Source of the DNA: Patescibacteria group bacterium
GTDB lineage: Bacteria > Patescibacteriota > Patescibacteriia > Patescibacteriales > WJLG01
Assembly: GCA_041652555.1 (NCBI GenBank)
Contig: JBAZHE010000002.1
Location: 13,409-77,408, forward strand
Direction: 5' to 3'
DNA: 64,000 nucleotides
The notes beneath the pieces are model-generated. The model saw only the letters and a program-made list of their open reading frames with translations. It was not told where the DNA came from and made no database searches. The stretch's first letter is position 1; the number at the start of each line of letters is the position of its first letter. A program made the translations under genes and the position numbers. Positions 10,570 to 60,011 of the stretch are shown in pieces.

Positions 10570-10598
10570 TTGACAGATTTTTTTAATGTGTTAATATA
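10570..10598 (+). promoter_or_regulatory. candidate promoter for rplJ-rplL (TTGACA-16-TAATAT); a long leader follows
   Basis: TTGACA at 10570-10575, TAATAT about 16 nt downstream. The 160-nt leader before rplJ is a candidate L10(L12)4 autoregulatory leader (inference). Confidence 0.35.
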
Positions 10599-10728
10599 AG
10601 GTTATTCAATAAAAGCCATAGACAGTAGGCAAAAAATTAAGTCCTGCCGAGGCAAAAAAAACATTTTGTTTTTTATTTGCGTCTGTGGTTAAAAGCCAGA
10701 GATTTTTTTATTAATAAATTTTAATTGT

Positions 10729-10749
10729 CAATTGAAGATTGATAATTGA
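10729..10749 (+). repeat. copy 1 of 21-nt intergenic repeat CAATTGAAGATTGATAATTGA
   Basis: Identical 21-mer also at 44710-44730. Near-identical copies at 38472-38496 (reverse) and 44613-44632. Confidence 0.7.
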
Positions 10750-10763
10750 AAATTAAATAGTTT

Positions 10764-16289: not shown

Positions 16290-16781
16290 ATGGGATTAAT
16301 AAAAGTTTTAGGTCTTGATTGGAAGGTTTTATTAGCACAATTTATAAATTTTGCTGTTTTACTTTTTGTGCTTTTCAAATTTGCCTATAAGCCGATGTTT
16401 AAGTTTTTGGATGATAGAAAAGATAAAATAGAAAAGGGGATAGAGAATGCCGCCCGCGCCGAAGATCGCCTTAAAGAAATTACCGAAAAGGAATTAGAAG
16501 TTTTGAAAAAAGCCAAGGTTGAAGCTGTGGAAATATTAAATAAAGCGCAACTTGAAGCAGAAGAAATTCGTAAGCGAGAATTAACAAAAACTCGCGAAGA
16601 AATAGGTAAAATAATCAATCAAGAAAAGGAAAATATGCGCCAAGAAAAAGCCGAAGTTCTGCGCGACATAAAAAGCGAAGTTTCAAAATTGGTTATATCG
16701 TCAGTGGAGAAAGTTTTAGAAGAAAAAATTGATAGCAAAAAAGATGAGGAGATAATTAAGAAAATGATAAAGGATAGATGA
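16290..16781 (+). CDS. atpF: F0F1 ATP synthase subunit b
   Basis: N-terminal TM helix then long charged coiled coil. Operon position. Confidence 0.85.
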   Translation: MGLIKVLGLDWKVLLAQFINFAVLLFVLFKFAYKPMFKFLDDRKDKIEKGIENAARAEDRLKEITEKELEVLKKAKVEAVEILNKAQLEAEEIRKRELTKTREEIGKIINQEKENMRQEKAEVLRDIKSEVSKLVISSVEKVLEEKIDSKKDEEIIKKMIKDR

Positions 16782-16803
16782 TAAATGATAAATTATTAGA
16801 ATT

Positions 16804-18786: not shown

Positions 18787-21224
<2,438 letters not shown>

Positions 21225-21661: not shown

Positions 21662-21672
21662 AAAACAACGGA

Positions 21673-21780
21673 GGTGCCATAGTCCCGATAGGGCTGTGGC
21701 ACCTAAAATGCAATCGTTATTTTTGAAATAATGTTTTGCAAATAGAGTGCCACAGTCCTGAGTACAGGAACTATGGCACC
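21673..21780. repeat. two related palindromic hairpins (GGTGCCAYAGTCC ... GGACTRTGGCACC) about 75 bp apart, downstream of atpC
   Basis: Hairpin 1 at 21673-21703 and hairpin 2 at 21747-21780 share nearly identical arms. Not followed by T-runs. Confidence 0.5.
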
Positions 21781-21810
21781 CCCAACGAGACAAAAATGTT
21801 TAATATTAAA

Positions 21811-28991: not shown

Positions 28992-28996
28992 AATTA

Positions 28997-29089
28997 GCCC
29001 CCTCTAGAAACCTGCCTGCCGGTAGGCAGAGAGAGTGTGGTCGGACCCAACGGGTCGCCCTTGGCGTACCCCGAGACGGAGTGTGTTGT
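28997..29089 (+). repeat. GC-rich palindromic element, copy A (CCCCTCT ... nested hairpins ... CCGAGACGGAGTGTGTTGTT)
   Basis: Roughly 60% GC in an approx 35% GC genome. Shares 5' CCCCTCT and 3' GACGGRGTGTGTT with copies at 30502-30545 (inverted) and 51552-51603. Confidence 0.5.
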
Positions 29090-29211
29090 TATATTTTGGC
29101 TTATAATGGCCATTTTTTTGTATAAACAAATAGTTGGTAAAACTATTGACAGTTGTTTGATTTTGTGCTAACATAACATGATAATTTAAAAAAATTAAAT
29201 ATCTAAAAAAT

Positions 29212-30489: not shown

Positions 30490-30501
30490 TCATTTTGAAA
30501 T

Positions 30502-30545
30502 AACACACCCCGTCTCGGGTACGAGACACCCCTATCAAGAGGGGG
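30502..30545 (-). repeat. GC-rich palindromic element, copy B (inverted relative to copy A)
   Basis: Minus strand reads TCCCCCTCTTGATAGGGG-TGTCTCGTACCCGAGAC-GGGGTGTGTT. Confidence 0.5.
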
Positions 30546-30555
30546 ATTATAATAT

Positions 30556-36371: not shown

Positions 36372-38471
36372 ATGATTTTGGAAAAATGGAGAAAAAAAGA
36401 GCGCGGTTTTCAAAAGAGAGGCAATAATCGCATTAATTTTTTAATCGCGATTGTTTTTTTATTTAGCCTGTTAATCGCCTGCCAACTTTTTTGTCTGCAA
36501 GTCATATCTTACGGTGATTATTCCGCCATGGCTTCTGGTCAGCATGAAGTTGAAAGCAAGCTTTTGCCTGAAAGAGGAGAAATATTTATCCAGGAAAACA
36601 AAAATAGTGAAGAAATTTTTTACCCCTTTGCCATTAACAAGGAGTATGCGCTAATTTATGTCATACCCAACCAGATAAATGATCAGGCGGTTTCGGAAAA
36701 GATTGCTTCGGCTTTATTTGAAGTCTTGGATCGTCCGACGGCGGAAATGGAGGTGGAGAATCTTTTTAAACAGAAAGATCTGGCTGAGTTGAATTATCAA
36801 TTATCCCTTTTGATTGGTTTACCAGCAGAGGAAAGGGCGGTTCGAGAGAAAGAGGTTAGAAAAAATCTTGATATTTTGCATAGCGATAAAACCTGGCGAG
36901 CAACGCAGGCAGATGATAAAAAAACAGAACTGGAGAAAAAGAAGCAAGAAAAAATTTCCGGCTATTATCCGATATTAAACAAAGGCAACGATCCTTATGA
37001 GCCGATACAAAAAAAAGTTGGCGAGGAAGAATTGAAAAAACTTTATGCCATTTTGCTTTCCGGTTCCGGAAAAGATTATAAAACTTCAGATTTTATCTTA
37101 AGAAGCGGAAAAATTTGTTTTGAGCAAGATTCTGTGACCGAAGATTCTTGTGAAGAAGTGATTATACCCGGGATTTCCCAGGAGATGGAATCTTATCGTT
37201 ATTATCCGGAAAATAATATCGGCTCCCATCTTTTAGGCTTTGTCCGTACGGAAAACGGTGAGAATAGCGGTAGCTATGGTTTGGAAGGATTTTTTAATAA
37301 AGAATTATCTGGCGTTTCCGGTTCGCTTAAATCAGAATTTGGCGCGAGAAGAAATATTATAATTTTAAACGGCCGGGAATATGTCGCGCCACAAAATGGC
37401 AAGGATTTAGTTTTAACCATTGATCGCAGTGTGGAATATTTCGCTTGCCAAAAATTGAAAGAAGCGCTAGAACAGGAAGAAGCGGAAAAGGGCGATGTGG
37501 TTATTGTTGATCCTACGACCGGAGCGATCATTGCAATGTGCTCTTTCCCTGATTTTGATCCTAATAATTTCTCTTCGGTGAAAGAAATGTCTTTTTTTAA
37601 TAATCCGGCTATTTTTGAGCAGTATGAACCGGGCTCGGTTTTTAAAGCTGTTACCATGGCCGCGGCCTTGGATGCTGGTAATGTTGTGCCAACTACTATT
37701 TATAACGATACTGGTAGCGTTAAGAAAAAGGGCTGGAATCAACCAATAAAAAATTCTGATTTTGAGACTAAGGGTGCGCATGGTTGGACAGATATGAGTA
37801 AAATTTTAGAATTGTCTTTAAATGTCGGCGCAATTTTTTTACGCGAACAATTAGGTGAAAAACCATTTGTTGAATATGTGAAAAAATTCGGTTTTGGCGA
37901 AAAGACTGGGGTAGAATTGGAGGGCGAGAGTAGTGGTGATATTAGTAATGTGGTACGCAAAAAGCCGGCTGAGATTGATTTGGACACCGCTTCTTTTGGT
38001 CAAGCTATTACAGTGACACCCTTACAGATGGTGATGTCCTACGCCGCTCTGGCTAACGGCGGAGTCTTAATGAAACCTTTTTTGGTTAAGGAAATAATTA
38101 ATGAAGATGGTAGTCGCGACATAACTAAGTCCAATGAGGTGCGTCGTGTTGTCTCGGAAAAAGTCGCTAATTTAACTATTGGAATGTTGATTAATGTTGT
38201 AGAATATGGCCATGCTAAAAAAGCGCAGATTCCAGGGTATTTTATCGGTGGTAAAACAGGCACAGCGCAAATTCCTGATAAAAGTGGCTATTCCAATGAC
38301 ACTATCCATACTTTTATTGCGATTGCGCCGGCAAATGATCCGAAGTTTGTTATTTTAACCAAGATAAATAAGCCGAAAAAATCAGTTTTCGCCGAGACTT
38401 CTGTTGTACCCCTGGCTAAGGAGATAATGGATTTTATGCTAAGATATTATCAAGTACCAAAAGAACGATAA
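36372..38471 (+). CDS. ftsI: penicillin-binding protein (FtsI/PBP2-type class B transpeptidase)
   Basis: N-terminal TM helix; SxxK (GSVFKAV), SxN (SLN) and KTG (GKTGTAQ) motifs. Confidence 0.85.
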   Translation: MILEKWRKKERGFQKRGNNRINFLIAIVFLFSLLIACQLFCLQVISYGDYSAMASGQHEVESKLLPERGEIFIQENKNSEEIFYPFAINKEYALIYVIPNQINDQAVSEKIASALFEVLDRPTAEMEVENLFKQKDLAELNYQLSLLIGLPAEERAVREKEVRKNLDILHSDKTWRATQADDKKTELEKKKQEKISGYYPILNKGNDPYEPIQKKVGEEELKKLYAILLSGSGKDYKTSDFILRSGKICFEQDSVTEDSCEEVIIPGISQEMESYRYYPENNIGSHLLGFVRTENGENSGSYGLEGFFNKELSGVSGSLKSEFGARRNIIILNGREYVAPQNGKDLVLTIDRSVEYFACQKLKEALEQEEAEKGDVVIVDPTTGAIIAMCSFPDFDPNNFSSVKEMSFFNNPAIFEQYEPGSVFKAVTMAAALDAGNVVPTTIYNDTGSVKKKGWNQPIKNSDFETKGAHGWTDMSKILELSLNVGAIFLREQLGEKPFVEYVKKFGFGEKTGVELEGESSGDISNVVRKKPAEIDLDTASFGQAITVTPLQMVMSYAALANGGVLMKPFLVKEIINEDGSRDITKSNEVRRVVSEKVANLTIGMLINVVEYGHAKKAQIPGYFIGGKTGTAQIPDKSGYSNDTIHTFIAIAPANDPKFVILTKINKPKKSVFAETSVVPLAKEIMDFMLRYYQVPKER

Positions 38472-38496
38472 ATTATCAATCTTCAATTATCAATTT
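38472..38496 (-). repeat. copy 3 of the intergenic repeat (reverse orientation) between ftsI and murF
   Basis: Minus strand reads AAATTGATAATTGAAGATTGATAATT. Confidence 0.65.
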
Positions 38497-38507: not shown

Positions 38508-39800
38508 ATGATTAAGAAAATAATTATTTGGAAATTAAAGTTTTTTTCCAGAGCGATTCTAAAAAAGTATCAGCCGAGAGTTATCGGCATAACCGGGTCG
38601 GTTGGGAAGACTAGTGCGCGTGAGGCTATTTTTTGCGTGGTTAAGCAAAAATTTAATTCTCGGCAAAGTGTTAAGAATTATAATAATGAATTTGGTTTGC
38701 CACTGTCTATTATTGGCACTATTAAATCTCCGGGAAAAAATCTTTTTGGCTGGGTAATTGTTTTTTTGTCGGCTCTAGGGTTGATATTATTTAGAGATAA
38801 AAATTATCCAGAAGTTTTAGTTTTAGAAATGGGTGTTGATAAACCTGGTGATATGGATTATCTGAATAGTATTATTGCTTGCGACATTGCAGTGCTTACA
38901 GGTGTTGGCGAATCGCATTTGGAGAATTTTTCTTCTAAAGAAAAACTAGCAATTGAGAAAGGTAAAATTTTTAATAATTTAAAGAAGGGCGGTTGGGCAA
39001 TTTTTAATTTTGATAATGAAAAATCCGTAGCACTTGCAAATGAAGTAAAAAATAAAAAAATTAGTTATAGTTTTGGGAGCGGAACAGAGATGCACGCTGA
39101 TGATTTGATTTTTAAATTTTCTGGTGACAAGAAGGTGGAGAATCTATCCGGATTATCTTTTAGAATTAATTATAGTGGCTCTAGCGTAGTAGTGAATATG
39201 GCAAAAATTGCCGGTAAGCCAGCGGTTTATGCCTCTTTGGCTGCTACCGCTGTTGGTGTAGTCTTGGGACTGGACTTGGAAGATATTGCTTTGTCTTTGG
39301 GTGGTTTAGAGTCCGTAGCTGGACGGATGAAGCTGATTCCTGGAATAAAAAATACGATTATTATTGATGATACTTATAATGCTTCACCTGATTCTTGTTT
39401 GGCGGCTATTGATTTTATTGCGCGAATAGAGACGGACGAGCCGTTTCGTCGTGTAGCTATTTTGGGTGATATGTTGGAACTCGGTTCTTATAGTGAGGCG
39501 GGGCATAGATTAGTTGGTCGAGCTTTGGCTGGAGCTGAATTTGATTTGCTTGTAACTTCTGGAGAAATATCTCGTGACATTAATCGTGGCGCGATAGAGG
39601 CTGGAATGAGTGAGGATAAGGTTTTTAATTTTGCTAATAATTTGGCAGCCGGAAAATTTGCTCAAGACAGAATAAAAAAAGGCGACCTTATTCTAATTAA
39701 AGGCTCACAGGGGGCGCGCATGGAAAAAGTAGTCAAAGAGTTAATGGCCGATCCGCTTTTGGCAGAAAAATTATTATGTAGACAGAGAGATTTTAAATGA
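38508..39800 (+). CDS. murF: UDP-N-acetylmuramoyl-tripeptide--D-alanyl-D-alanine ligase
   Basis: Mur ligase P-loop GITGSVGKTS; C-terminal DDTYNASPDS typical of MurF. Follows ftsI. Confidence 0.8.
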   Translation: MIKKIIIWKLKFFSRAILKKYQPRVIGITGSVGKTSAREAIFCVVKQKFNSRQSVKNYNNEFGLPLSIIGTIKSPGKNLFGWVIVFLSALGLILFRDKNYPEVLVLEMGVDKPGDMDYLNSIIACDIAVLTGVGESHLENFSSKEKLAIEKGKIFNNLKKGGWAIFNFDNEKSVALANEVKNKKISYSFGSGTEMHADDLIFKFSGDKKVENLSGLSFRINYSGSSVVVNMAKIAGKPAVYASLAATAVGVVLGLDLEDIALSLGGLESVAGRMKLIPGIKNTIIIDDTYNASPDSCLAAIDFIARIETDEPFRRVAILGDMLELGSYSEAGHRLVGRALAGAEFDLLVTSGEISRDINRGAIEAGMSEDKVFNFANNLAAGKFAQDRIKKGDLILIKGSQGARMEKVVKELMADPLLAEKLLCRQRDFK

Positions 39801-39832
39801 TAAATGGTAGATGATAAATAAAAAAGCAATTC

Positions 39833-42627: not shown

Positions 42628-42715
42628 GACTTTAATTTAAGATGATTAATAATTTGCCTGCCCTGACTCGTAGTGAGTCTTGTCGAACTAGCTTGTTGAA
42701 GGGATGATTGAAGAT

Positions 42716-42991
42716 TTAACCTAATCCTGGGATTCCGCCCATGCCTTTCATTTTTTCGGCCATGGCGCGCTGGGCTTTTTTAATAGTTTCATTAAAAATA
42801 TCCGGTAACCTTTTTTCCAGTTCTTCTTTGGACATTTCTTTTTCCAAAGTAATCGTTTTAACATTCATGTTGCCGTCCATAGTAATCTTAATCCCATTTC
42901 TTTCCTCGTTAATCATTACGCCAGATAAGGCGCTTTGAATGTTTTTGGCCTGACTACGCAGATCTTTGAGTTGTTTTAATTTTTCAAACAT
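42716..42991 (-). CDS. ybaB: nucleoid-associated protein YbaB/EbfC
   Basis: About 91 aa with C-terminal KMKGMGGIPGLG. Classically adjacent to recR. Confidence 0.85.
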   Translation of the reverse strand: MFEKLKQLKDLRSQAKNIQSALSGVMINEERNGIKITMDGNMNVKTITLEKEMSKEELEKRLPDIFNETIKKAQRAMAEKMKGMGGIPGLG

Positions 42992-44405: not shown

Positions 44406-44597
44406 AAAGATTAGAAAGTTTAATAGACTTATTATAAGCGAGACCGCCAGCTTTGGCAAGGCGCGTTTCTTGTGCGTTAACTGTTGAAAAAGGCCATAAA
44501 AACTAGAAAAATACCCCCTTGTCAAAGTTAAAATTATTTGTTATTGTTTAAATTAAAGAAAAATCTCCTTTTGGAGTTTATTTTTTTGTTAAAATAA

Positions 44598-44626
44598 TTG
44601 ACAATTGTTAATCAAAGATTGATAAT
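44598..44626 (+). promoter_or_regulatory. promoter for the tRNA pair (TTGACA-17-GATAAT)
   Basis: TTGACA at 44598-44603, GATAAT at 44621-44626, about 10 nt before the tRNA-Lys 5' end. Overlaps copy 4 of the intergenic repeat (44613-44632). Confidence 0.45.
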
Positions 44627-44636
44627 TAAATTAAGA

Positions 44637-44709
44637 GCGCCCATAGCTCAGCTGGTAGAGCAACTCCCTTTTAAGGAGATGGTCACAGGTTCGAATCCTG
44701 TTGGGCGCA
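44637..44709 (+). tRNA. tRNA-Lys (anticodon TTT)
   Basis: Cloverleaf: acceptor GCGCCCA/TGGGCGC, D-arm GCTCAGCTGGTAGAGC, anticodon loop CTTTTAA, T-arm with GGTTCGAATCC. Confidence 0.85.
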
Positions 44710-44730
44710 CAATTGAAGATTGATAATTGA
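44710..44730 (+). repeat. copy 2 of the 21-nt intergenic repeat, between the two tRNAs
   Basis: CAATTGAAGATTGATAATTGA, identical to 10729-10749. Confidence 0.7.
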
Positions 44731-44740
44731 TAGTTTTTTT

Positions 44741-44813
44741 GCCACCCTAGCTCAGCTGGTAGAGCAACAGTTTTGTAAACTGTGGGTCGTCGGTTCGAAC
44801 CCGACGGGTGGCT
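44741..44813 (+). tRNA. tRNA-Thr (anticodon TGT)
   Basis: Acceptor GCCACCC/GGGTGGC, anticodon stem ACAGT/ACTGT with loop TTTGTAA, T-arm GGTTCGAACCC. Confidence 0.85.
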
Positions 44814-44856
44814 CATTTCAAAATACGAATTACAAAGTTCGAAGTTCTAATTTATA

Positions 44857-51130: not shown

Positions 51131-51133
51131 AAT

Positions 51134-51194
51134 AATGCTAAATGCTAAATGATGAATGCTAAATAAAATAATTTAGCATTTAGCATTTAGCATT
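51134..51194. repeat. near-perfect 61-nt palindrome of heptad repeats, (AATGCTA)n ... (TAGCATT)n, filling the dcd-thyX spacer
   Basis: AATGCTAAATGCTAAATGATGAATGCTAAAT-AAAATA-ATTTAGCATTTAGCATTTAGCATT. Ends 3 nt before the thyX start codon. Confidence 0.55.
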
Positions 51195-51201
51195 GTTAAT
51201 T

Positions 51202-51810
51202 TTATATTTGTACCTCTTGTCCTTCGGTGCTTACTCTTCCGCCCATCCATTGGCCACGATATTGATTGCCTTCACCTAGAACTTCTTGAAAGGTGATATG
51301 GGCGATACGAGCACCGAAAGAAATTTTAACATTAGCTGGACCAAGATTGCAAACACCAAAAGTTAATTCTCCAGAATATCCCGGTTGAACAATCCCGTTA
51401 AACATTCCAAGGCCGGAACGAAACATTGTTGTGCGCGGGAAGACAACTCCGGAAAGAGTAGTCGGCAAATTAACTTTTTCCATTGTTTTAACAAGGTAAT
51501 ATTTTCCAGGTTCAAAAATAAAAATATCTTCGTTAACAGAAGTTGGCAAATCCCCTCTAAAAAGAGGGGTGGCGCGGTACTCCGCGACGGGGTGTGTTGT
51601 GTTGGAATTTTGAGCTTTGCCAACTAGTTTAGTGTTTGGTGTTTGTCTTTCTTCTACACCTAAAAATCCATCTCCTTCTAATTCATAAATTTCTCCCAAC
51701 CTCAAATCAAAACCCGCACCTTCGGGATTATTCATTTCCCGTTCGCACAAACCCCCAACCAGATTTATTTCCCTTACTAATTCGTGTAGTTTTTTAATAC
51801 CTAGAATCAT
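51202..51810 (-). CDS. dcd: dCTP deaminase
   Basis: GFDLRLG ... PRTTMFRSGLGMFNGIVQPGYSGELTFGVCN matches Dcd motifs. Contains an in-frame copy of the GC-rich element. Confidence 0.8.
   Translation of the reverse strand: MILGIKKLHELVREINLVGGLCEREMNNPEGAGFDLRLGEIYELEGDGFLGVEERQTPNTKLVGKAQNSNTTHPVAEYRATPLFRGDLPTSVNEDIFIFEPGKYYLVKTMEKVNLPTTLSGVVFPRTTMFRSGLGMFNGIVQPGYSGELTFGVCNLGPANVKISFGARIAHITFQEVLGEGNQYRGQWMGGRVSTEGQEVQI
51552..51603 (+). repeat. GC-rich palindromic element, copy C, lying in frame within dcd (encodes NSNTTHPVAEYRATPLFRGDLP on the opposite strand)
   Basis: CCCCTCTAAAAAGAGGGG-TGGCGCGGTACTCCGCGAC-GGGGTGTGTTGTGTT. The stem GCGCGG/CCGCGC replaces copy B's GTCTCG/CGAGAC (compensatory change). 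Confidence 0.45.
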
Positions 51811-58093: not shown

Positions 58094-58456
58094 ATGAAGG
58101 AGGAAATAACTTTATCCGGTCCTCATAAAAATTTTGAGGACATCAAAAAAATTAATAAGAATGGAGTGGAATATTGGGAAGCACGCGAATTGATGCCACT
58201 TTTAGGGTACCCAAATTGGGAAAAGGCAGAAGATGTTATCGCTAGGGCTGTTCGCTCTTGCATGAATAGCGGACAAGATGTTGATGACCATTTTCACCAT
58301 ACGGTGAAAATGGTAAAAATTGGCTTAGATTCAATGAGAAAGATTGTGGATAACTCTTTAGATAGGTATGCCTGTTATTTGATCGCTCAAAACGGCGATT
58401 CTAATAAACCGGAAATAGCCTTAGCTCAGACTTATTTCGCAATTAAAAATTTATAA
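58094..58456 (+). CDS. dinD: DinD-like (DNA-damage-inducible protein D family) protein
   Basis: YWEARELMPLLGYPNWEKAEDVIARAV ... DHFHHTVKMVKIG ... RYACYLIAQNGDSNKPEIALAQTYFAI resembles E. coli DinD throughout. Confidence 0.6.
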   Translation: MKEEITLSGPHKNFEDIKKINKNGVEYWEARELMPLLGYPNWEKAEDVIARAVRSCMNSGQDVDDHFHHTVKMVKIGLDSMRKIVDNSLDRYACYLIAQNGDSNKPEIALAQTYFAIKNL

Positions 58457-58469
58457 TTTATAATTTTGT

Positions 58470-60011
58470 ATGAAATTCTATATCACAACAACTCTCCCAT
58501 ACGTCAATGCCGATCCGCATATTGGGCATGCGGCGGAATTTATTAAGGCGGATTGTTTGGCTCGTTGGCATCGTTTAATTGGCGATGAGGTGTTTTTTAA
58601 TACTGGGACTGATGAGCATGGGCAGAAGATTTATGAGAAGGCGAAGGCGGCTGGTAAGGATACTTTGGAATATTGCGATGAGTATGCGGCAAAATTTGGG
58701 GCTTTGAAAGAGGCTTTGGGGCTTACTTATAATAGTTTCATAAGAACGACTGATAAGCATCATATTGAGGCGGCACAGGCTTTCTGGAAGCTCTGCGAGG
58801 CCTCGGGAGACATTTATAAGAAACAGTATCAGGTTAAGTATTGTGTGGGTTGTGAATTGGAAAAAACTGATTCGGAATTGGTTGATGGGAAATGTCCTTT
58901 GCATCCTAACGCTGAACTGGAATTAATTGATGAGGAAAATTATTTCTTTAAATTTTCAAAATATCAGAAGCCACTTTTAGATTTGTATAAAAATAATCCG
59001 GAATTTGTAAAACCGTCTGAACGCTTTAATGAAATCAAATCTTTTGTAGAGAGGGGATTGCAAGATTTTTCTATTTCTCGTTTGGCTTCTAAGATGCCTT
59101 GGGGGATTCCGGTGCCGGGAGATGAAACGCAAGTGATGTATGTTTGGTTTGATGCACTAGTGAATTATGTTTCTTGTCTTGGTTGGCCATGTCATTGTGA
59201 GAGGGTGAATAAATTTGGTGCTGAAGAAAGTTCAGATTTATGCTTATGTAATAAAGATGAATGTAATTATAAAAGATACTGGCCGGGGTTGCAGGTTTGT
59301 GGGAAGGATAATTTGCGTCAGCAGACGGCTATGTGGCAATCAATGTTAATGTCAGCTGGCCTACCAACTTCTAAACAAGTTTTGGTGTTTGGATTTATTA
59401 CAGCCAATGGACAAAAGATGTCTAAGTCTTTAGGTAATACTATTAATCCGATTGACCTTGTTGCTAAATATGGTGTTGATGCCACTCGTTATTTCTTATT
59501 AAGAGAAATAAAACCTTTTTCTGATAGTGATTTTTCTTTTGAAAAATTTGAAACTTTGTATAATGCTGAGTTGGCTAATGGTATTGGCAATTTGGCGGCG
59601 CGCGTTTCTAATTTGTTGGAGAAGAATGGAATTGAGACTAATTTAAAAAAAATTAATTTTGTTGGACCACTTGAGTTAGAAAAAGAAACAGAAGAATCGT
59701 TTAGTTTTTATGTAAATTTTCACTTAAAGATGAGTGAGTATGCTTTTGATGAGGCTATTGGAATTTTAATAAAAAAAGCAGCTGATTGTGATGTGTTTTT
59801 GGCTGAAAAAAAACCTTGGAAAATGGATAGCAAAGAAGAAATTAAAAAAGTTCTTGAGCCGGTGGCGCAAGATATTTTGGATATCGCTTATTTATTGGCG
59901 CCGTTTATGCCGACAACTTCAGAAAAATTAATTAAGCAATTTTCGGAAAAACAAATCAAAAAAGGCGAATCACTTTTTCCGAGATTGGATGTTAGCGTAA
60001 AAGGTGTATAA
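58470..60011 (+). CDS. metG: methionyl-tRNA synthetase
   Basis: HIGH (DPHIGHAAEF) and KMSKS motifs. Zinc knuckles CVGCE ... CPLH. Confidence 0.9.
   Translation: MKFYITTTLPYVNADPHIGHAAEFIKADCLARWHRLIGDEVFFNTGTDEHGQKIYEKAKAAGKDTLEYCDEYAAKFGALKEALGLTYNSFIRTTDKHHIEAAQAFWKLCEASGDIYKKQYQVKYCVGCELEKTDSELVDGKCPLHPNAELELIDEENYFFKFSKYQKPLLDLYKNNPEFVKPSERFNEIKSFVERGLQDFSISRLASKMPWGIPVPGDETQVMYVWFDALVNYVSCLGWPCHCERVNKFGAEESSDLCLCNKDECNYKRYWPGLQVCGKDNLRQQTAMWQSMLMSAGLPTSKQVLVFGFITANGQKMSKSLGNTINPIDLVAKYGVDATRYFLLREIKPFSDSDFSFEKFETLYNAELANGIGNLAARVSNLLEKNGIETNLKKINFVGPLELEKETEESFSFYVNFHLKMSEYAFDEAIGILIKKAADCDVFLAEKKPWKMDSKEEIKKVLEPVAQDILDIAYLLAPFMPTTSEKLIKQFSEKQIKKGESLFPRLDVSVKGV

Follow-up and report, generated by a model that had tools for sequence, protein, structure and literature searches.

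Intergenic ATTGAWR heptad arrays in a Patescibacteria genome and the period-7 excess of related loci

RESULTS

Tandem heptads underlie a repeated 21-mer

The window, i.e., the whole 64-kb stretch of DNA analyzed here, contains rplJ preceded by an L10 leader, a tRNA-Lys/tRNA-Thr pair, and neighboring genes identified through Pfam as those for an FtsI-like PBP, a MurF-like ligase, RecR, YbaB, and DnaB (Table 1). An exact 21-mer, CAATTGAAGATTGATAATTGA, occurs on the forward strand at 10729-10749 and 44710-44730, i.e., upstream of rplJ and between the two tRNA genes, as the original prediction stated. The latter copy begins within the final bases of tRNA-Lys. A third copy, with 2 mismatches, lies on the reverse strand between ftsI and murF (38469-38489), where a copy in reverse orientation had been described. 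None of 100 dinucleotide-preserving shuffles matched the 21-mer. Its 12-nt core, AGATTGATAATT, is found at exactly four sites of the window (10736, 38471 on the reverse strand, 44616, and 44717), all of them intergenic, against an expectation of 0.04. This core brings in the copy upstream of tRNA-Lys (44616), which had been called near-identical and is present as a degenerate array. Likewise, ATTGANNATTGA has 6 matches at 3 loci in the window, compared with 0.54 expected.

The pentamer ATTGA recurs three times in register at three loci of the window, and the heptad phasing originally described was confirmed (Table 1, rplJ array). Tandem Repeats Finder (TRF) independently reported period-7 arrays at 10730-10754, 38471-38495, and 44711-44732 (3.1 to 3.6 copies) and a period-14 array at 44604-44630. 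The repeated unit is ATTGAWR (TRF consensus, AATTGAA), with 3 to 5 units per array. All four copies are intergenic; the density in the window is thus three to four per 64 kb, with none in genes. Some details of the original prediction had to be revised. The copies flank tRNA-Lys and not, as proposed, the tRNA pair. The partial copy between recR and ybaB does exist as an 11-mer, GATTGAAGATT, but it falls within chance: matches with at most 1 mismatch number 6 against 3.2 expected, and 6 were reached in 12 of 100 shuffles. We therefore do not count it as a fifth copy.

Table 1. Heptad arrays and neighboring features in the 64-kb window
Feature	Positions	Strand	Units	Remarks
L10 leader	10598-10717			Rfam
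rplJ array	10724..10758	+	ATTGTCA ATTGAAG ATTGATA ATTGAAA ATTAAAT	TRF period 7, 3.6 copies; between L10 leader and rplJ ATG (10764); includes exact 21-mer
AAATGAT/GATAAAT array	16762..16798	+	AAATGAT/GATAAAT	TRF, 4.6 copies; spans atpF stop and atpF-atpH spacer
TTAAAAA/TTAAATT array	19795..19834	+	TTAAAAA/TTAAATT	TRF; atpG-atpD spacer
murF array, inverted	38469..38496	-	Minus strand: ATTGATA ATTGAAG ATTGATA ATTTA	TRF period 7; occupies 36-nt spacer from FtsI-like PBP stop (38471) to MurF-like ligase ATG (38508)
AAATGAT/GATAAAT array	39794..39821	+	AAATGAT/GATAAAT	TRF; at MurF-like stop
ybaB-side 11-mer	42706..42716	+	1.5 heptads	Adjoins ybaB stop; not counted as member
tRNA-Lys array, degenerate	44597..44631	+	ATTGACA ATTGTTA ATCAAAG ATTGATA ATTAAAT	TRF period 14; carries 12-mer core
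tRNA-Lys(UUU)	44637-44710			ARAGORN
tRNA-Thr array	44712..44732	+	ATTGAAG ATTGATA ATTGATA	TRF period 7; occupies most of 30-nt tRNA-Lys/tRNA-Thr spacer
tRNA-Thr(UGU)	44741-44814			ARAGORN
AATGCTA arrays, inverted pair	51131..51203	-	AATGCTA	TRF; between dCTP-deaminase-like and ThyX-like genes
AATTTAT array	58436..58471	+	AATTTAT	TRF; occupies spacer before gene starting at 58470

Beyond the 21-mer the 7-nt register goes on while the flanks otherwise diverge, and a discrete 21-nt element was therefore ruled out; an ungapped 48-nt similarity of 75% between copies reflects the common heptad register only. The term "small repeat element" in the original prediction holds loosely, the kind of element being a heptanucleotide tandem array with no 21-nt unit and no defined ends. 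A mobile repeat of the MITE or REP type was rejected because flank similarity ends at the array edges, and a DNA uptake sequence was rejected on the low copy number in the window and the absence of copies from its genes. Rfam matches at the gathering score were limited to the two tRNAs and the L10 leader. None of the arrays falls inside these features, which argues against a known RNA family. A literature search for the exact sequence returned unrelated primers only.

Promoters, folding, and translation starts around the arrays

The tRNA-Lys array is the best sigma-70-type promoter of its region, with TTGACA (44598-44603) and GATAAT (44621-44626) separated by 17 nt (11/12 match; 10 nt before tRNA-Lys), and it is the only copy in which canonical -35 and -10 boxes lie 16 to 18 nt apart. 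The original prediction of two correctly spaced TTGACA/GATAAT pairs is therefore correct for one of them. At rplJ, TTGTCA is only 10 nt from GATAAT; the best match there, TTGTCA-17-GAAAAT (9/12), uses a different -10 box, located 10 nt before the ATG, and the main rplJ promoter lies upstream of the L10 leader (10570-10597). Nothing passed the promoter scan at the tRNA-Thr copy, and the 9/12 matches at the murF copy are antisense only. With canonical -35/-10 boxes in one of the four copies, and one copy inverted, the earlier view that the repeat is not simply a promoter was borne out.

Folding differs among the copies. Together with positions 10715-10723, the rplJ array forms an A/U-rich quasi-palindrome in which 10715-10733 pairs with 10737-10755 (18 bp; -11.9 kcal/mol; z = -5.07). 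The tRNA-Lys copy yields a weak hairpin (z = -2.65), and no fold was found for the tRNA-Thr copy (z = +0.30) or for either strand of the murF copy (z of about 0).

Of 62 crude gene starts in the window (e.g., 8673, 14148, 25296, 30556, 39870, and 47068), just 6 have a Shine-Dalgarno (SD)-like motif. Many have a TATAAT-like box 6 to 12 nt before the ATG, and promoters of the canonical form TTGACA-17-TATAAT are frequent. The scarcity of SD-like starts, together with these -10-like boxes close to the ATG, suggests that leaderless or short-leader mRNAs are widespread and that the organism relies on SD-independent initiation.

A general excess of period-7 repeats

ATTGAWR is one of at least five unit families in the window, which contains at least five further heptad arrays with other units (Table 1). 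The two AATGCTA arrays, inverted relative to each other, fold into a strong hairpin (-27 kcal/mol; z = -6.93) ending a few nucleotides before the downstream ATG; it is not a classical terminator, since it has no U-tract.

Self-matches of at least 16/21 in the window amount to 60 positions at period 7 and to 0 to 12 at the other periods from 3 to 14. In 80 related loci (0.99 Mb), obtained via the DnaB gene of relatives, the corresponding values are 662 at period 7 and 29 to 191 at other periods up to 13, with 301 at period 14, a multiple of 7. When these loci, the window, and four more relatives were pooled (1.07 Mb), 107 triples of 5-mers, comprising 63 distinct words, were counted at period 7, versus 8 at periods 6 and 8. 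Overall, period 7 exceeds its neighboring periods 5- to 13-fold in the window, in the approximately 1 Mb of related Patescibacteria loci, and in the 18-mer-bearing loci of other genomes described below. In the 1.07-Mb set, 31 of 50 arrays lie wholly outside crude open reading frames (ORFs), yet only 12% of the DNA is located there. Approximately 15 to 20% of the arrays have an inverted partner nearby (16, versus 3 in the control).

An extreme case was observed in a relative, L211 (GCA_028707065.1), in which direct and inverted heptad arrays with a wide range of units (AGAAGTA, GTGTTAT, AATTTTT, GAAATTA, TTAGTTA, ATTGTTA, TACGAAT, and others) make up many of the spacers.

Presence and units of arrays in orthologous spacers of relatives

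At the rplJ site, the same-strain contigs (L119-L121) are identical to the window. In four relatives with 83%-identical L10 (L202-L205), the promoter, the L10 leader, and a terminator-like hairpin are kept, and the ATG follows directly with no array. The rplJ leader of L212 likewise has no array. In L206 (88%) and L211 (72%), a strong hairpin built from other heptads, ACGCATA/CATAACA, occupies the site (z = -3.5 and -4.8).

Each of the five closest DnaB relatives (L122-L126) has a tRNA-Lys/tRNA-Thr pair next to dnaB, divergently transcribed in four of them; ATTGA is present in none of the five tRNA-Lys/tRNA-Thr spacers. That of L123 holds four CTCAAAA/GTCAAAA units, and the homologous spacer of L122 holds one or two. 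At the ftsI-murF junction, synteny is retained only in L143, in which the genes abut and there is no array. The heptads in the atpB-atpE and atpG-atpD spacers differ among the window, L202, and L204, the last of which carries an expanded AATTTAT array at a position where the window and L202 have no expansion. The AATGCTA, ATGATAA, ATTGTAA/ATTGAAA, and AATTTAT families reappear in L202 and L204 at nonorthologous sites. What is kept is thus the period, and in some cases the spacer, whereas the unit sequence changes.

Separately, a heptad-built hairpin between the L10 leader and rplJ was seen in three of six related lineages (window, 10715-10755; L206, 1-95; L211, 9880-10003), ending about 8 to 9 nt before the ATG and drawn from two unrelated unit families.

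ATTGAWR arrays in other phyla

The 18-mer common to the three strong copies was scanned over one genome per GTDB species, which yielded at least 118 loci, the source genome not being among them. In 85 of the 118 matches listed, the ATTGA register extends into the flanks. Such register-continuing matches include (i) Prevotella and other Bacteroidota; (ii) Peribacteria (6 to 7 loci per metagenome-assembled genome [MAG]), Gracilibacteria, and Saccharibacteria; (iii) Acidobacteriota, Myxococcota, Chloroflexota, Fibrobacter, and Desulfobacterota; and (iv) a region upstream of a tRNA in Methanosarcinaceae. Some of the other matches listed are coding coincidences (Nostoc and Thermoplasmatota). Heptad positions 6 and 7 are mostly AG, AA, or TA among the matches listed, and ATTGA is kept, although the search seed biases this pattern. 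With the seed masked (±150 nt), the 118 loci listed still contain 245 period-7 triples, versus 18 to 48 at other periods, which indicates that ATTGAWR-bearing genomes are generally rich in heptad arrays.

Among the GTDB matches listed that lie between co-directional frames, 17 are in the sense and 4 in the antisense orientation. This bias is offset by another 18 listed arrays inside antisense open frames, some truly coding and others 5' extensions, and a strict orientation rule was therefore ruled out. A function in supplying stop codons in three frames was also rejected, since sense-strand stop-richness among arrays between co-directional genes in the relatives is only 8 versus 5 and one copy of the window is inverted.

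Several individual loci deserve mention. In Bacteroidota (L044/L112, L039, and L017), the reversed 18-mer can be coding, its reverse strand having no stop codons; one example encodes a lipoprotein-like signal peptide (MNNFQLSIFNFQFF...SGC), and another lies close to a C-terminal ...NPFNPSTTI motif. In Peribacteria and Gracilibacteria (L023, L095, L098, and L111), most copies are forward, 10 to 25 nt upstream of an ATG, with CCCC or CCCCTC in place of an SD sequence. Arrays in two Peribacteria MAGs (CAYWLU01 and CAYFMH01) lie within longer dispersed repeats with common flanks. In a Methanosarcinaceae MAG (L090, ~1291), a four-heptad ATTGAWR array located 12 nt upstream of an apparent tRNA start mirrors the tRNA-Thr copy of the window.

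DISCUSSION

Relation to known heptanucleotide repeats

The closest described case is that of the TAACTGA repeats of marine Beggiatoaceae, some Cyanobacteria, and Bacteroidetes (MacGregor 2015, PMC4679880). These occur in 2 to 6 copies, often split by related heptads, mostly just upstream of start codons without a ribosome-binding site (RBS), and in BOGUAY they show a forward bias, with about 147 oriented toward start codons and 12 toward stop codons (PMC4679880). TAATTGA, i.e., the ATTGAWR unit read in another register, is one base away. Both repeats have a 7-nt unit with TGA that gives stops in three forward frames and none in reverse; both are tandem (2 to 6 copies, in many cases broken up by related heptads) and intergenic and can lie just upstream of RBS-less starts, including those of ribosomal protein genes; and both are scattered across phyla, with RNA that is predicted to be almost unstructured. 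However, the units here are TAATTGA, AGATTGA, and AAATTGA rather than TAACTGA, and the window has only four sites in 64 kb. A forward array before an RBS-less start is found at rplJ, whereas the murF copy is inverted and the other two precede tRNAs. The strong forward bias of BOGUAY is also unlike our wider sample, and one heptamer dominates in BOGUAY whereas many unit families coexist in the window.

A broader class is the excess of heptanucleotide simple-sequence repeats (SSRs) in bacterial intergenic DNA (LSSR 5-11; Mrazek 2007, as cited in PMC4679880), for which polymerase slippage has been tentatively proposed (Mrazek 2007 via PMC4679880; PMC4692102). Our arrays resemble LSSR, the cyanobacterial STRR, and the GGGAATC/GGGGAYT repeats of Xanthomonas and Nostoc (PMC4692102) in their intergenic period-7 excess, lineage-specific units, and occasional inverted pairs, and probably also in varying in length and sequence from one close relative to the next. 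Unlike those repeats, the arrays of the window are short (3 to 5 units), very AT-rich, and without G-quadruplex potential, and their host has a Patescibacteria genome of roughly the 1-Mb class rather than a large genome. ATTGAWR is best seen as a further unit family within this known class. The phenomenon is here seen in a very small, SD-poor Patescibacteria genome in which whole intercistronic spacers are made of arrays.

Two other comparisons are more distant. The omega repressor binds WATCACW heptads of inc18 plasmids. These heptads, and the TTTTGAT heptads of the Vibrio cholerae ctxAB promoter (ToxR/ToxT/H-NS), are contiguous 7-bp units found in either orientation in promoter regions, the latter also sharing TTGA/TCAA with ATTGAWR. 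Both are conserved at one or a few defined promoters and have a known cognate protein, whereas the heptads here are unconserved and mostly outside promoters. As in REP/BIME elements, some heptad arrays are inverted pairs forming intercistronic hairpins (51131-51203 and the rplJ leader in the window, L206, and L211); in contrast, a REP is a single conserved imperfect palindrome of ~35 nt rather than a tandem of 7-mers, and the tRNA-Thr and murF copies have no hairpin.

Slippage-born repeats as the favored explanation

The arrays are tandem, specific to period 7, restricted to intergenic DNA, not conserved at orthologous positions, and diverse in unit sequence. We consider it moderately probable that they are lineage-specific heptanucleotide SSRs that are born by slippage, tolerated in spacers, and without a dedicated reader. 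Arrays would arise and turn over when strands slip during replication and misalign by 7-nt (and 14-nt) units, and the unit sequence would drift in concert within an array. The identical 21-mers would then be draws from three common variants (ATTGAAG, ATTGAAA, and ATTGATA) and/or products of copying between arrays, with no 21-bp recognition site involved. Arrays would persist because they are harmless in spacers, and they are barred from genes in the sense orientation because they carry TGA in all three frames. Presumably no dedicated factor reads them, and their local effects would be generic: one array-like sequence probably serves as the tRNA-Lys promoter, the rplJ copy may contribute a modest A/U hairpin to an SD-less leader, and the tRNA-Thr and murF copies would be unstructured transcribed spacers.

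Some observations count against slippage. The exact 12-mer occurs at four sites and the 18-mer at three, for which a lottery among three variants gives an estimated chance of roughly 1 to 4%; sharing on this scale suggests that sequence was copied from site to site or is under constraint. Nor can purely local slippage account for the same unit families at nonorthologous sites in L202 and L204. Furthermore, the rplJ leader, the tRNA spacer, and the atpG-atpD spacer repeatedly hold arrays in different lineages. The retention of ATTGA beside variable positions 6 and 7 (subject to the seed bias), the mostly forward copies before ATGs in Peribacteria and Gracilibacteria, the share of arrays with an inverted partner, and the identity of the same-strain contigs at rplJ weigh in the same direction. 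Exact 12- to 21-mers at unlinked sites, the recurrence of families, and the repeated occupation of particular spacers keep the following alternatives alive.

Alternative readings

Foremost among the alternatives is an element acting at the RNA level, which we regard as rather unlikely. AUUGAWR arrays would be unstructured multivalent sites for the 30S subunit, S1, or a cold-shock-domain protein (~7-nt footprint) and, by analogy with the role proposed for TAACTGA repeats, might promote or tune initiation on mRNAs without an SD sequence. Bacteroidota and Patescibacteria are lineages with low SD use, and array-type matches are frequent in both among the matches listed. The reading is also consistent with the 6/62 SD-like starts of the window, with the rplJ array ending 5 nt before an SD-less ATG, with other heptad arrays ending 1 to 9 nt before ATGs (16804, 38508, 58470, and 51130), and with the predominantly forward copies 10 to 25 nt before ATGs in Peribacteria and Gracilibacteria. 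Forward arrays are essentially without structure. In addition, TAATTGA is a one-base variant of TAACTGA, which lies forward just upstream of RBS-less starts, including those of ribosomal protein genes (PMC4679880). However, two of the four copies precede tRNAs rather than ORFs, and the orientation of another is opposite to that of murF. The 83%-identical relatives, which are equally SD-less, have no rplJ array, and the wider data have no clean orientation bias. In spacers this short, no array can lie far from a start codon, and the unit sequences are so diverse that no single sequence-specific reader fits.

A bolder version, distinctly unlikely in our judgment, posits a cis-acting heptad code operating across phyla, read per unit by an OB-fold/cold-shock-type protein or S1 with a ~7-nt footprint. 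As single-stranded RNA (or as DNA), such a code would stand in for SD pairing, or flag sites of processing, in lineages poor in SD sequences (Patescibacteria, Bacteroidota, and Cyanobacteria). It would explain why the period and the spacer position persist while the unit drifts. If a protein or the ribosome does read the arrays, they would bear on SD-less initiation.

The original prediction favored a protein-binding site or a small repeat element. Omega heptads are indeed a known protein-binding platform, and an operator- or iteron-like DNA site would have a putative dimeric or oligomeric protein, e.g., a ribbon-helix-helix protein of the type of pSM19035 omega or, as at V. cholerae ctx, a nucleoid protein, sitting on consecutive heptads and co-regulating rplJ, the tRNA operon, and murF. 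The exact, strongly nonrandom word is confined to regulatory spacers, its orientation independence suits a DNA site, and the tRNA-Lys promoter shares its -10 box with the 12-mer; at ctx, heptad arrays are described as binding platforms (10.1101/2021.05.14.444153). Nevertheless, the site is conserved at no orthologous position in the relatives, there are only three or four sites per 64 kb, and two of them are downstream of a promoter or within operons. Because the period rather than the sequence is conserved, because arrays are missing or replaced in orthologous spacers, and because both orientations occur, we find the protein-binding reading unsupported and consider it very unlikely. An annotation lesson follows: identical 20-mers in such spacers need not mean operators or promoters.

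It is highly improbable that the copies are promoter modules, in which the GATAAT -10 box of each, with a weak or absent -35 box, would drive a short-leader or leaderless transcript and the inverted copy an antisense RNA into ftsI: the tRNA-Lys promoter, the 9/12 match before rplJ, and the many genes with a -10-like box near the ATG fit this reading, but the obvious promoters of the window all have a near-consensus TTGACA at 16 to 18 nt, which the tRNA-Thr copy lacks, a strong promoter ahead of the leader already serves rplJ, and the spacing from GATAAT to the downstream feature (10, 13, and 17 nt) is not fixed.

Scarcely more than a slight chance attaches to a copying mechanism that would make the arrays footprints or cargo of a mobile process, e.g., of an element that inserts and excises repeatedly with a 7-bp target duplication, or products of gene conversion between arrays: the identical 12- to 21-mers at unlinked sites, the shared families at nonorthologous sites in relatives, and the dispersed repeats surrounding the arrays of CAYWLU01 and CAYFMH01 speak for it, but the flanks in the window diverge directly outside the array, neither terminal inverted repeats nor an associated transposase are present, and the excess at period 7 spans dozens of unrelated units, which favors a general mutational bias instead.

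GC-rich islands in AT-rich spacers

Apart from the heptad arrays, GC-rich islands that appear self-complementary by eye are present in AT-rich spacers of the window (21662-21800, 28992-29100, and 30490-30555) and of L202 (6035-6190 and 8775-9348). They had no match in Rfam at the gathering score. A similar-looking GC-rich element (cccctc..gaggggtggcgcggtactccgcgacggggtgtgtgaggc) occurs twice in L202, and the islands could represent a small noncoding RNA or REP-like family.
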